Source: Candidatus Cloacimonadales bacterium
Lineage (GTDB): Bacteria > Cloacimonadota > Cloacimonadia > G963667145
NCBI GenBank assembly: GCA_965140615.1
Contig: OZ223280.1
Coordinates: forward strand, 904,450 to 968,449
Direction of reading: 5' to 3'
Length of the DNA: 64,000 nucleotides
In this document: in pieces, positions 50,901 through 56,900 of the stretch
How positions within the stretch are numbered: position 1 is the stretch's first letter
Layout: each line of letters begins with the position of its first letter
Position numbers: made by a program

Positions 50901-53900
50901 AATCCCGTACAAAGTTTTATTTCTTAGCTCGCAATCAATATTCTGATTCCAACGATGTTGATTTTCTTCGTAGATGTTAGATTGTCCTACATCGTAGCGA
51001 AACTCTAGGATAAAATAGTTGTTTATTTCTAAGCCAGCACCAGTAATAATGCCATAGTCAAGAAATGCATAATCTTCAGTAACTATACTAAGACATCCAC
51101 TTATTCTGCCTCCCAAGCTAAGATAAGGGACGAAATATTGGCTGTGAATAATAGGCTTAAATGTTAGTAATACAGGAAAATCAAGATAATAAATTTCAAT
51201 ATCATCACTATAATTCCACTTATCTCCGCTTTCATATTTTTCTTCTGCCCCTTTTTTAGAAATCATAATTTCTTCATGAAACCCGAAATAGTTAAAAGGT
51301 TGTTGATTAAATCCAAACCCTAGTGCAAACGAGGGAACATTTTCGTACGAAAAAGATTCAGAAGAATTTTTAGAATCTAGCCAAGAAGAGCCATATCCTC
51401 CAAAAAGGTAGAAGTTTTTATGGCTTTTCTTTATTTTTCTTAGCAAAGTCGCTTTTGAGTTGTTATGCCTATAAAAATTATCTTTTTCGCCGTTTGCGTA
51501 TTTTATGAAAAGAACTTCAAAGATTGGAATAGTTTCTAAAGTAGCATTGGATTCTAATCCTTTTTTGTATTTTATTTCATCGTCGATTATTTCGACAACT
51601 TTACATTTAAGTTCTTCACCATTAGTTTTACAAATAGTGTCGAGAGCATTAAGATAAGTGATTGAAAATATCAGGATAAAAAGTATTTTTTTTCTCATTT
51701 TTCCTCGAGTTTTTTTCAAGGTAAGAAAAATCTTAGGCTAAAATGTCAAGGACATTTTGTGGTGAAAGTGGAAACTCCACACTAAAAGTATCCACCCCAA
51801 GTTAGTGATTTGTAATTGGCTGGTTTATGATAAAATGGAAAAGTTAATTAGAAAAATGGAGAAATAGTCTGTAAAAAAAATGGTCAAATCAGCCGTGAGA
51901 GCTGTAATTTGACCATTATGAATAAATATATAGACAATTTGAAAATTATGAGTAGAAAAGACAAGAAATTTTATCGGAAAAATTTGGTGAAATTTGCAAA
52001 TGAAACATCTATTTCCGCTGCAGCTAGAGAATTTGAGACCACTAGAAAAACTGTGCGAAAGTGGGTCAAAGCCTACAAAGAAAAGGGCGAGGATGGTTTG
52101 GTTAATAAATCTCGAAAAGAGCAAAATTTCCCAAATCGCTTAAAATCTGAGATAATAGAGGAAATAGTAGTTTGTCGTAAAAAGGCAAAAAACCGCTGGG
52201 GAGCTAGGCGAATTATTGACCATTTGCAGTTAAATTGTTCAGCTTCGACTGTTCATAAAAAGCTCTGTGATGCTGGTTTGGTAAAGAAAAAGAAACGGAA
52301 ATATCAGCAACGCAAAGATTTAAGTGAAATGCGAGCTAGGGCAAAACCTTTTGAAAAAATCCAAGTGGATATTAAGTATTTGACCGATATGCCAGAATTG
52401 TTTGAGGGGATTAAGTACAAAAATTATCCTCGCTATCAAATCACTGCTAGAGACTACAAAACTGGTATGCAATTCATCGGTTATTGCTATGAGAAAACAG
52501 CCGTAAATGCAGGGATTTATATCGATTTTTTGTCTAAAAGATTAAAGAGTTGTGGTGTTGATCTTTCCAAAGTTACTTTTCAAACCGACAATGGCTCAGA
52601 GTTTGTGAGTCCGAAGAAAAAGGGTTTTTAGCTTTTTTCAAAAAAGTGTGCAAATAAATGGTGCTAATCATTCGCTTATCCCCAAGGGTTCGCCCACTTT
52701 TAATTCTGATGTTGAAAGTGCTCATCGGCTGGTAGAGGACGAGTTTTATCTGATTGATGAATTTGATGATTGCAACGATTTTGTGCGTAAAGCACACAGT
52801 TATACGCTGTATTTTAATCATTTTAGAGGAAACAGAGGGCGAAAAGGTAAGACTCCGAAGCAAATTTTGCGGGAAAATTCTAGGAAACCTAATTTTAATG
52901 TTTTGAACATTAGCCCAATAATCACAGATTGTTATTTAAAAGATATAGAAAAAATAAATAAGGGTGGATACTTTTACTGTGTACCGCCCAACCCGTTTAA
53001 AATTTATTATTGACACAAAGACCTATTTTTTATCTTTGATTGAAGATGAGAACACATTAAAATAAGGGAAAGGATACAATTATGGAATCTAACTTTGACA
53101 GAATCGGGCAATGTCTTAGCAATTTTCAATCAGGTCTACGACAACAAGGAATAACCTTAGAAGAATACATCGGTGATAACTACAAACAAAAATGGCTTTC
53201 GGACGAACTGTTCCATGTTTTCAAAATTAAAACCACCTTTATGAACGCCGCTACCCAGTTTTTGGCAAACGAAGGTCTCATAAATTTGGAAAAAATATTG
53301 ATGAGCGTCGTTACCGATCCCCTAGCACACGATATCGAGCACACACCTGTCATCTCCTACAAAGGCAACAACTATGTAACCACCCATTCAATGATTTATA
53401 GTAAACTTTTAGCGTGCTCCAATCCCAAAATCAAAGGCGTTTTTACCGATTCCCCCAACATCCGTCTTGAGCTAGAAAGCCCAAATCACAAACAAAGAGG
53501 ACGCTATTTAATAGATTTTTCTCAAATAGACATTGAAGTAAAAAGAGATCGCTATATTGCTTTGGACGAGTACTTTAGCAAAGAAAGCGAAGTACTAAAA
53601 CTCATAAAAGAAGACTGCACCAAAGCTCGCAACCTATTTGAAAGAATGATAAAGCATATCTGCCAAGAGATAAACAAAAACAACCAAGAAGATATGGACG
53701 CACTCGGCGTGCAATTTCCTATTCCAAACATACCATTTCCCACATACACATACGACTACGCTGTGGGAAAATACGGCAAAAAAGTTGGCGAAGAAGCTGT
53801 GGGCGAAGAATCTAGCGAACAATTCTTTTGGATTACAGGCATAAAGCGAGAAAACTACGACCTTATCTACCCCTTTATGCAAAAAGACGGCTCAAGCCTG

Positions 53901-56900
53901 TCTTTGGACGAGGTAACTTCGGAGAACATCTTCAACTACGACCTTGTAGCCAAAACTATTAAAAAAGACGGCACAACTCTCACTGCCAAGGAAATTCTTT
54001 CTGGAGGAGTCAGAGAGTGGCTTTATGAACCGATAGTAGAAAGGATCTTGGCGAACAAAGTACTCAAATCAAGACCTGTCATCAAAGACGGCTACCTAGA
54101 AAATATCGAAGAATTAGCTGGCTACGGTCCATTTTTGATGTACTCCAGCATGAAAAAAAATGACGGCTCCCCAGTTTTCCCTTCAACTATGGGTGGAGGA
54201 TTAGGAGTGGAAAGATTTATGTTCGCCACGCTCCGCGGAGAGAATGTCCAAAAGATAGATGATGTAACTTTCTTCGGCAAAAACCCCGACTCTCACTCGC
54301 TCTACCTTTTCTAGATTACACAAAAATTTAAAAGCCGACTAGTTTTTAACTAATCGGCTTTTTGTTAAGTTTGATTTTTATCATAAATGTAACAACTACC
54401 AAAAAAATGTATCATTTTAAGTTTACAACATATTATGTTTAAAGTGGTTATAAATAAAATGTATTTATGTAACAATTCTTTTTGAAAAATATAACAATTT
54501 ATAGTTGCAACTTAACAAATTTCATCTTTTGCAAAAGAGTTATAATTTCTCGAAGCAAATAGTTATTATCAAATCTCAAAGTATATTTTTTGAAGTTCTG
54601 TTTATCTGACTAAATCATCTTTTTCTCTTTCAATTTTTTCAAAGTTCGAGACCTTTCTATGTAGCTCTTACCCTCAAAAAAAATTCGCTATGTCAGAAGC
54701 TTTAAAAACTTGCTTTTCCACTGCTACTTTTAATTTTTTTCTAACTCAGTAATATCCTCTCTTTTTGGCTTATATTAAAGACGAAATCAAAATCTTATCT
54801 TTTAAATAAAGAGTAATCTAAAAGCTTATCTATTTTTTCAAGTTCATCTTTTAGCCCCGACAAAACATATTCACACCACCTAAAAGTCCGACTCTTTTCT
54901 CTCGAATCGGCTTTAGACAAATAGCGATAATAGTTATTACGGTTACTAAAAAATAGCTGTAAAGTTTAGAATACGACCCTCTTTTACATTAAATCCGCAT
55001 TTTAATAACATTGCTATTGGTCAACAGGCGAACAGTTCTTCCATTGCCATTATCGAAAGGGTGAATCCAGACAAATCGATGATGAGCAATGGCAACTTTG
55101 AGTAAAATGAAAGCTCCACACTAAAAGTACCCCCCAAGTTAGCGATTTGTAATTGGCTGGTTTATGATAAAATGAAACCGAAGATATATGAATACGGATT
55201 TTTGAAAGCCTAGCGTTTAGCTAAGCAAATAACTTTTGCATAAATAAAGGAGCTGAATTTTCAACTCCTTTTCTGTTGCGATGATTGTTTTATCTAGCTG
55301 GTGGTGTGCTTTCGCAGTTGGAGACGATAGTGTCGATTTGCACCAAAGCACCCATCGGGATTGTAGATACGCCTACGATGGTGCAGGTTGGCAAGTCGCC
55401 TGTGAAAAACTAAGCGTAGGTTTCATCAAGATTGCTTCTGCGTCCATTTGTAGTTCGAGGTCCTTAGCGAAAGAGTTATGCTATTTTGGCAGTTGATTGT
55501 GATTAGTCCTTTCCTAGCACAAAGAACAGCCGTTGGGCTTGGTCTGCTTGGGTGGGGCTAATGAGTTTACCCTGTGAATACACCCCTTTCAATTGCCAAG
55601 GAGATTTTGCGATGAGGTTTATGAGGGTTTGGGCTGAGTATATTTTTTGCTGATGAGTTTCTACGAAAGAGTCGTAGAGGTAGCCGTTTTTTTGGAAGAA
55701 ATGGAAGTTGGTAACTTGTGTGTCTTCTTGTAGATAGCACTCTTGCATCACGAACTGTTGCTCATCTTTTTGGTAGTCGAGTAGTCCGTCGAAGTTGTCT
55801 TGGCAATTTCTGAGCGTGGAGACATCGAAGATGAAGAGTCCGCCAGAGGTCGTGCGGTGGTGCGTGGCAAGCAGGAGTTGGGCGATTTGCTTTTGGTTGG
55901 CAAGGTAGTTCAGGCTATCGAACATCAGCAAACTCAGGTCGAAGCCTGTATCGCCTGCTTTTTCTAGCATATCGCCAAGCTGCAGTCTAGGGTGATGAGG
56001 CTTGGCTTTTGCGATGGATAGCATTTGCTGGCTGATATCTTCGCCGAGCACATCGTAACCTTGCTCTACCAATCGGCAAGCGATGTTCGCCGTGCCACAA
56101 GCCAGCTCTAGTATCTTCTGTGGCTTGCACCCTTTGACCTCTTGGTAAGTGTCTAAGACGAACTGTGTCCACTCTTGGTAGCGGACATGGCTCATATACT
56201 GGTCGTAGATGGGTGCTAGATGCGAGTAAGTTGAAATCTCCTGACTCTCAAGCTTCAAACATTTCTCGGCGAAATCTAGGGCACAGACGAGGCTGCCGGG
56301 GTCGGCTATGTCTTGCCCAGCGATGTCGCAGGCTGTGCCGTGATCTACGGAAGTGCGGATGAAAGGTAGCCCGAGGGTGGTGTTCACCCCTTTGCCTTTG
56401 GAGAGCATCTTGAATGGGACTAGCCCTTGGTCGTGATAGGCAGAGATAACCATCTGGTAGTTGGCAGAGTTGTAGGCGAAGAATGTGTCTGCGGGGAAAG
56501 GTCCGTCAATCTCGATTTGCTCTGCTTCTTTGAGCTCTGCCAGCCAGCTTTTTATCTTTTGGTCTATTGTGCCGAAAGCTCCGTTTTCGCCAGCGTGCGG
56601 GTTCACGGCGAGCATCGCCAGTTTTGGATTGGTGAGCATCTTTTTGCTGTGGTGATAGATGATGCGTATCTTTCCCTTGAAAAACTCCTCGGTTAGCGTG
56701 GGCTCTACCTCTTGCAGGGCTAGATGTGTGGTGAGTAGTGCCAAGTGGAAGTAAGGACCGAAAAAGCTCATCACGAATGGGTATCGCCCCTGTGCAAAAA
56801 ATTCGGTGTGTCCGATGAAACTAGGGTCGGTCAGCTGGATGGCGTGCTTGTGAATAGGGCAAGTTACCACTGCGTCTATCTGCTCTTGGTCGGCGAGCAC

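Follow-up and report, generated by a model that had tools for sequence, protein, structure and literature searches.

What does a paralog of the aminoacyl-tRNA synthetases do that has the class II catalytic core without an anticodon-binding domain, and how did its gene come to stand next to an insertion sequence (IS)? This question is raised by a gene for a 410-aa protein in the window, that is, the whole 64,000-nucleotide stretch of a Candidatus Cloacimonadales genome that was analysed here. Our analysis points to an ammonia-dependent asparagine synthetase, predicted to be an expanded bacterial form of the AS-AR lineage, and we give this assignment a probability of roughly 0.7. As described in PMC3532385 and PMC9437257, AS-AR is derived from aspartyl-/asparaginyl-tRNA synthetase (AspRS/AsnRS); it activates aspartate at the beta-carboxylate, which is then amidated with ammonia. 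The gene in question is:

53082..54314, plus strand: coding sequence of the AsnA-like class IIb synthetase catalytic core (ATG start, 410 aa)

The open reading frame (ORF) lies where an earlier inspection of the DNA alone (the sequence-only reading) had placed it, which had also recognized the product as a class IIb core paralog without an anticodon-binding domain. In Pfam, the class II D/K/N core (PF00152) matches residues 40-401 with 43.1 bits (gathering cut-off 25), and the scan gave no match at E ≤ 10 to PF01336, the anticodon-binding OB fold, which is present in the true AsnRS proteins adjoining family members in other genomes. The stretches previously described as motif 2-like and motif 3-like align column-for-column with AsnRS and archaeal AsnA. 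By its PF00152 score and its motifs 2 and 3 the 410-aa protein is a class IIb core; by the missing OB fold it is not a class IIb synthetase proper. An AlphaFold model was obtained with a pTM of 0.82 and a mean pLDDT of 76.6, in which residues 1-39 form two helices.

Profile and phylogenetic comparisons, proposed earlier as a check, were used to place the protein and its homologs among the class IIb enzymes. In hhalign, the family matched NF005054-type AsnA with a probability of 100% (E 6e-49, 296 columns, 33% identity), the alignment covering template columns 15-310 of 312 and hence the whole AsnA length. The match of the family to the neighbouring AsnRS reached a probability of 29% (E 6e-4), and AsnA matched AsnRS with 100% (E 2e-42). 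On these values the family is a diverged side branch of the AS-AR lineage and not a recent truncation of asnS. Its full-length homology, which is nearer to AS-AR than to AsnRS or AspRS, argues for membership of AS-AR in the broad sense. The best PDB sequence matches were 1nnh and 3p8t, both AsnRS-like asparagine synthetases of Pyrococcus, and residues 161-323 aligned with residues 224-380 of AspRS in the same search. At the top of the Foldseek results stood archaeal AspRS (3nel, 1b8a; E 4e-14) together with archaeal AsnA (3rl6, 3reu, 3p8t), the latter with a TM score of 0.70 on target. In a bootstrapped neighbour-joining (NJ) tree rooted on AsnA, the whole family was recovered with a bootstrap value of 100 and was split from AsnA by a long stem.

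AS-AR of Pyrococcus abyssi/furiosus (3p8t, 3reu, 3rl6, 1nnh; NF005054/PRK06462) is likewise a class IIb core without an anticodon-binding domain. It has the blocks TDPL, T-SMI--K, SPN-RLE, F-Q-D-E, FW----RE-YD, E-LSGG-RE and G-G-G-ER in common with the family, in which 20 of the 22 invariant or near-invariant AS-AR positions, counted by reading the alignments, are identical. The two differ in length (approximately 294-318 aa for AS-AR compared with 410 aa for the window protein), in the C-terminal motif (FPR in AS-AR, FGK in the family) and in occurrence, AS-AR being archaeal and the approximately 411-aa family bacterial (Spirochaetota, Desulfobacterota, Planctomycetota, Cloacimonadota and others). 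AsnRS (TIGR00457/NF003037) and archaeal AspRS (1b8a, 3nel) have the same catalytic fold and conserve motifs 2 and 3 as well as the acids corresponding to D287 and E304, but they carry the OB fold that the family lacks, and the pocket blocks of the family are of the AsnA type. For E. coli-type AsnA (11AS/12AS), which also has a class II synthetase-like core, the proposed reaction would be equal (Asp + ATP + NH3 -> Asn + AMP + PPi), but it belongs to a separate lineage without a detectable sequence match: Pfam, NCBIfam and PDB sequence searches, 11AS/12AS included, returned no match to it at E ≤ 10. Two proteins of 417 aa (P0171) and 443 aa (P0220) from the search of cluster representatives described below are NF005054/NF005052-type AsnA with an N-terminal extension of approximately 110-130 residues. 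The AspRS model aligns with P0220 from residue 17, and these forms may retain an anticodon-binding-like domain and represent intermediates between AspRS/AsnRS and AS-AR.

For a detailed characterization of the active site, a joint alignment of the family, AsnA and AsnRS was inspected, and invariance was judged over 33 family members. The segments concerned are:

53271..53324, plus strand: motif-1 region with the TDPL signature at its end, codons 64-81, EGLINLEKILMSVVTDPL (joint alignment)
53460..53537, plus strand: class II motif 2 and its loop, codons 127-152 (I127-E152), IRLELESPNHKQRGRYLIDFSQIDIE (alignments)
53940..54017, plus strand: acids D287 and E304 and the SGG-RE block, codons 287-312, with S307, G308, R311 and E312 as block residues (alignments)
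54192..54233, plus strand: class II motif 3, codons 371-384 (G371-L384), GGGLGVERFMFATL, with R378 invariant (alignments)

The universal class II residues R128, E130, F146, E152, D287, E304, G308, R311, E312, G371, G373, G375, E377 and R378 were invariant in 33 of 33 members. By analogy with class II enzymes, D287 and E304 would be the acids that bind Mg and ATP. Twelve positions resemble AsnA and differ from AsnRS (D79, M104, I105, K108, S124, N126, Q148, D150, W250, R256, D260 and S307), and inspection found the AsnA-type pocket residues invariant: D79, S103, M104, I105, K108, Q148, D150, R256 and R311 are both family-invariant and in agreement with the AS-AR consensus. T78, D79, P80 and L81, equally invariant, form the TDPL signature common to archaeal-type AsnA; D79 is conserved to 93% in AsnA and replaced by Leu in AsnRS. 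By this alignment, the family has the pocket residues that mark AS-AR, including two arginines and the SMI--K lysine. According to PMC3532385, AS-AR anchors aspartate via two arginines, whereas E. coli-type AsnA anchors its substrate by an Asp-Gln pair. R256 and R311, both kept in the family, fit this two-arginine anchoring of archaeal AsnA and are the obvious candidates for the pair.

The genomic context of the family in other organisms was surveyed at 80 genome loci carrying its members. In 35 of them asnS is the next gene downstream, in the same orientation, with a gap of 12-474 bp, and this arrangement accounts for 34 of the 41 informative loci of the Spirochaetota-dominated set. The adjoining asnS products are full-length asparagine-tRNA ligases (643-685 bits; cut-offs 343-414). 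At 16 loci, which come from Desulfobacterota, Planctomycetota and related bins, an immediate neighbour is type I glnA (549-640 bits, cut-off 429), mostly upstream with a gap of 11-17 bp; the order is reversed in one locus. Further loci repeatedly have genes for amt, P-II and a NifA-like sigma-54 activator at a distance of ≤5 kb, for example in the order amt-P-II-activator-paralog at L087. Linkage to asnS connects the family with an asparagine consumer, and linkage to glnA, amt and P-II connects it with ammonia assimilation. These two independent links are what an ammonia-dependent asparagine synthetase predicts.

A scan for sigma-54 -24/-12 motifs found 10 plus-strand sites in approximately 1 Mb compared with approximately four expected from a uniform-base estimate. 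Just one of these sites directly precedes the paralog (L070, at a distance of 90 nt), and one lies before a glnA-paralog pair (L082). This signal is weak and we do not rely on it. Upstream of 11 paralog-asnS loci, no Rfam match to a known leader RNA such as the T-box was found. Depending on the Spirochaetota lineage, the paralog-asnS pair is flanked by the gene for an M18 family aminopeptidase or by purB, encoding adenylosuccinate lyase (L006 9992..11284 and L004 5437..6729); both are aspartate-related enzymes. For the E. coli-type enzyme, an asnS-asnA operon is reported from Lactobacillus bulgaricus, which would be a precedent for joint transcription of asnA and asnS.

The fold and family relationship, active-site conservation, purifying selection, synteny and the linkage in other phyla are supported directly. 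Substrates, product and activation of the beta-carboxylate are carried over by homology to AS-AR, and the following scheme is proposed on this basis. The AS-AR lineage would be a class IIb synthetase core after loss of the tRNA-binding domain. The enzyme would bind ATP and L-aspartate and activate the beta-carboxylate of aspartate to beta-aspartyl-AMP; ammonia, in place of tRNA, would then attack the adenylate to yield L-asparagine, AMP and PPi. The approximately 411-aa bacterial subfamily would have kept the AS-AR active site and gained two helices at the N terminus as well as five internal insertions. In the Cloacimonadota genome, the gene would be a stand-alone copy that is inherited vertically within the clade.

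The family is far larger than a single copy, and the description of the gene as an orphan had to be abandoned. A search of 5.8 billion proteins returned 1,009 homologs of the 410-aa protein, and the family has more than 1,000 members, among them IS-free orthologs in the matching position. The best 120 homologs are nearly all 410-411 aa long and cover the full query with 55-94% identity. Between phyla, identity within the family is 53-61%, and an alignment of the 33 members is co-linear with a mean column identity of 76%. Taking one genome per species, a relative is encoded in 320 of 185,579 species genomes, with carriers in Spirochaetota, Desulfobacterota, Planctomycetota, Bacteriovoracaceae and Cloacimonadota. 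In an exhaustive hidden Markov model (HMM) search of 1.84 billion representatives of 50%-identity clusters, only about six were full-length (approximately 430-545 bits), below which the scores fell to approximately 300-aa proteins at approximately 100 bits; this is a compact family with a sharp boundary. Its members appear in public databases as 'hypothetical protein' or 'amino acid--tRNA ligase-related protein', and many are mislabelled 'aspartyl/asparaginyl-tRNA synthetase' by JGI. A literature search found no publication on the 411-aa form.

Several observations weigh against an asparagine synthetase. The best NCBIfam match is indeed NF005054, 'asparagine synthetase A', but at 134.1 bits against an equivalog cut-off of 309, and NF005052 scores 73.8 bits against 368, so that the protein lies far under every curated AsnA equivalog cut-off. 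For the approximately 300-aa relatives from the HMM search, NF005054 gives 221-395 bits, and several exceed the cut-off. In the motif-2 loop, the His and Glu of AsnA and AsnRS are exchanged family-wide for Tyr142 and Asp145. Furthermore, six conserved insertions add approximately 115 residues relative to AsnA, namely the N-terminal two-helix extension (residues 1-38) and five internal insertions at approximately 155-176, 264-282, 292-301, 328-344 and 357-362, which contain many invariant residues. Through Tyr142, Asp145 and these insertions the substrate or acceptor specificity may have been altered. The active-site loops 74-103 and 125-145 of the structural model have a pLDDT below 50. Finally, neither nitrogen-assimilation genes nor asnS are found near the gene in the window, and the linkage argument for its function rests on other phyla and not on the window genome. 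Because of the failed equivalog cut-off and the family-specific changes, we do not assign the approximately 411-aa form to AsnA in the plain sense.

One of the insertions had been noticed before. The stretch FNYD...KEILSGG had been described as an insertion of this protein, which holds for the approximately 9-10 extra residues at 292-301; the remainder is core sequence and contains the catalytic D287 and E304. Nor is it peculiar to this copy, being one of six insertions that are all conserved in the family.

These points lead to the alternative that survives best, an adenylate-forming amide or ester ligase that uses the adenylation chemistry of AS-AR on a different acid or acceptor amine, for example to form another nitrogen-storage or signalling amide in a pocket reshaped by the insertions and by H142Y and E145D. 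The long stem between the family and AsnA, the score beneath all AsnA equivalog cut-offs and the family-wide conservation of the insertions and of both motif-2 substitutions would be expected of such an enzyme, and a glnA/amt/P-II context suits any ammonia-consuming reaction. The AsnA pocket is intact, however (TDPL, SMI--K, SPN-RLE, Q148, R256 and R311), and linkage to the asparagine consumer asnS in 35 loci best fits asparagine as the product. We consider a ligase of altered specificity unlikely.

There is likewise a small chance that the family is an amide synthetase that is regulated by nitrogen and has a new property. Either its acid or amine specificity may have been changed by the six insertions together with Tyr142 and Asp145, or it may be an asparagine synthetase docked on AsnRS or glutamine synthetase that channels asparagine or ammonia, in which case it may be likened to a tRNA-independent counterpart of the transamidosome. 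Such properties would explain why identity between phyla remains at 53-61% after a long divergence from AS-AR, and why the gene is close to asnS in some genomes (12-140 bp) and to glnA in others (11-17 bp).

Physical partnership could also be invoked without catalysis. The protein would then be a HisZ-like regulatory or channelling subunit of AsnRS or glutamine synthetase that makes no asparagine itself; adjacency to asnS or glnA could reflect such a partnership, and the N-terminal helices and insertions could be interaction surfaces. We hold this to be quite improbable, as all class II residues for binding of ATP, Mg and carboxylate are invariant across phyla, which is unexpected for a regulatory paralog, and the window gene is under strong purifying selection with neither partner nearby.

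Still more improbable is a truncated AsnRS or AspRS that, lacking the anticodon-binding domain, still acylates tRNA or a tRNA-like acceptor, as the JGI label of many members and the class IIb fold with all three motifs might suggest. The OB-fold domain is missing, the AsnRS profile match has a probability of merely 29%, and a full-length asnS adjoins the gene in 35 loci. In addition, the AsnRS blocks DCEGAGE and VSGQLE, which bind the alpha-amino group of the amino acid, are replaced by the AsnA-type TDPL and SMI--K.

An EF-P lysine ligase of the EpmA/GenX type or a natural-product amino-acid:carrier-protein ligase is hardly credible, since it has the general architecture alone in its favour (class II core, no anticodon-binding domain), the EpmA/GenX models TIGR00462 and NF006828 gave no match at E ≤ 10 in NCBIfam, and neither efp/epmB-like nor carrier-protein-like genes are among the 25 most frequent neighbour families of the homologous loci or among the annotated genes of the window flanks. 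EpmA/GenX/PoxA, the EF-P beta-lysine ligase and a LysRS paralog, is also a class IIb core without an anticodon-binding domain, but the pocket of the family is of the AsnA type and an efp/epmB context is lacking; amino-acid:carrier-protein ligases are SerRS-like, of class IIa rather than class IIb. The annotated flanking genes of the window include none of asnA, asnB, efp and epmB. Both candidates, and E. coli-type AsnA with them, were rejected for want of a model match and of supporting context. AsnA, EpmA and carrier-protein ligases, which the sequence-only reading had regarded as hard to tell apart, can thus be distinguished by the archaeal-type AsnA match (E 6e-49), by the absence of a match to any EpmA model and by the asnS and glnA neighbours elsewhere.

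The second part of the question concerns the IS and the origin of the gene. The elements around the gene are:

51778..52981, plus strand: IS481-family element with 27-nt terminal inverted repeats (51778-51804 / 52955-52981), context outside the gene
53036..53063, plus strand: promoter-like -35/-10 pair TTGATT-16 nt-TAAAAT (consensus scan only)
53070-53074, plus strand: AAGGA Shine-Dalgarno-like site; like the -35/-10 pair, it lies in the leader of approximately 90 bp that separates the IS from the start codon
54330..54362, no strand: terminator-like hairpin with A-run/U-run flanks (bidirectional type), 16 nt past the stop codon
54480..55140, minus strand: decayed Fic-domain pseudogene, broken fragments in several frames, in the ORF-less AT-rich downstream spacer (1.2 kb)

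The frameshifted IS481 copy directly upstream and the strong terminator downstream were both borne out. The transposase is broken into two frames (51909..52631 and 52648..53013) and matches NF033577 with 117 bits over the N-terminal 200 of 284 positions, and the element sits between a gene of the outer-membrane protein (OMP) type and the AsnA-like gene. The hairpin at 54330..54362, which is followed by a U-run, folds with -16.1 kcal/mol (z = -4.9), and none of 200 shuffled sequences folded equally well. The gene is a monocistronic unit with its own leader and terminator, flanked by the IS on one side and a decayed Fic-family gene on the other. No Rfam family was found near it, and tblastn detected neither asnS nor a second paralog copy in the window.

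The sequence-only reading had taken the gene for an apparently horizontally acquired one within an AT-rich patch next to the IS. Low GC is limited to the flanks (OMP-like genes 0.31-0.36, IS 0.35, downstream spacer 0.32); the gene itself has a GC content of 0.411 compared with 0.410 for the window. The closest genomes are circular metagenome-assembled genomes (MAGs) of approximately 1.55 Mb labelled Candidatus Cloacimonadota, with 85-94% protein identity. On the related contig L002, the order OMP-OMP-paralog is as in the window, and the IS is absent from that intergenic site. Homology of the window with IS-free relatives restarts at approximately position 52992, so that approximately 90 bp of native leader are retained. 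The block of BipA, RarA and an IS5 fragment (46472..49931 in the window) adjoins the gene in two of these closest genomes, too. Compared with the 94%-identity ortholog, dN/dS is 0.035, which shows that the gene is functional and under strong purifying selection. Given the IS-free syntenic orthologs, the mapped IS boundaries, the window-typical GC and the dN/dS value, the IS481 element is a later insertion approximately 100 bp upstream of an already resident gene. The same data rule out IS cargo and recent horizontal gene transfer.

A much older transfer is plausible. The Cloacimonadota (bootstrap 100) group with the intermediate relative P0007 (72% identity; bootstrap 100) and then with P0008 (65%; bootstrap 92) inside a Spirochaetota-dominated clade with a bootstrap value of 82. 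Because of this nesting, the gene may have come from a Spirochaetota-like donor and then descended vertically in the Cloacimonadota clade. Neither P0007 nor P0008 has asnS or glnA nearby.

The surroundings of the gene show further traces of change. Window positions 52999-55106 align with L011 5919-8044 at 76.7% identity in blastn, and L011 contains an intact 378-aa ORF with a Fic motif at 7432..8568 on the minus strand. At 49527..49931 on the minus strand, 134 N-terminal residues remain of an IS5-family transposase with a full length of approximately 419 aa; the fragment (DUF772) is an old relic, since it is kept at the same position in the relatives L002 and L003. The IS5 relic, the IS481 element and the Fic pseudogene mark the junction as a hotspot of rearrangement and decay, and what lies downstream varies between the window, L001, L002 and L003.

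Elsewhere in the window, a cobalamin riboswitch (RF00174, 67 bits; 58575..58796, plus strand) lies directly upstream of a 682-aa ORF (58888..60936), which has no Pfam match at E ≤ 1e-5 and resembles an outer-membrane receptor. A low-GC island at 21000..38700 (GC 0.27-0.37 compared with 0.41-0.50 elsewhere) has a reversed GC skew and every long ORF on the minus strand; it may represent an acquired cluster for surface polysaccharide or something similar. At 55503..57167, the minus strand encodes a 554-aa protein in which PdxA (PF04166) is fused to a SAM-dependent methyltransferase domain at the C terminus, an unusual architecture, and a tRNA-Pro (GGG) gene is located at 63919..63996 on the plus strand, at the extreme end of the window.

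The window itself is ordinary, with a conserved housekeeping-type gene between an IS and a decayed Fic gene, and the value of the finding lies in annotation and evolution. As members are named hypothetical, ligase-related or, wrongly, AspRS/AsnRS, metabolic reconstructions of the many Spirochaetota, Desulfobacterota, Planctomycetota and Cloacimonadota MAGs with the gene may predict a false asparagine auxotrophy or count AsnRS twice. If the asparagine synthetase is confirmed, an annotation gap that affects at least 320 species genomes would be closed. The AS-AR story of a synthetase paralog that makes its own amino acid would then reach from archaea deep into the bacteria, and AsnRS, the approximately 300-aa AS-AR and the 411-aa form would make up a natural series that shows how the class II core is remodelled.

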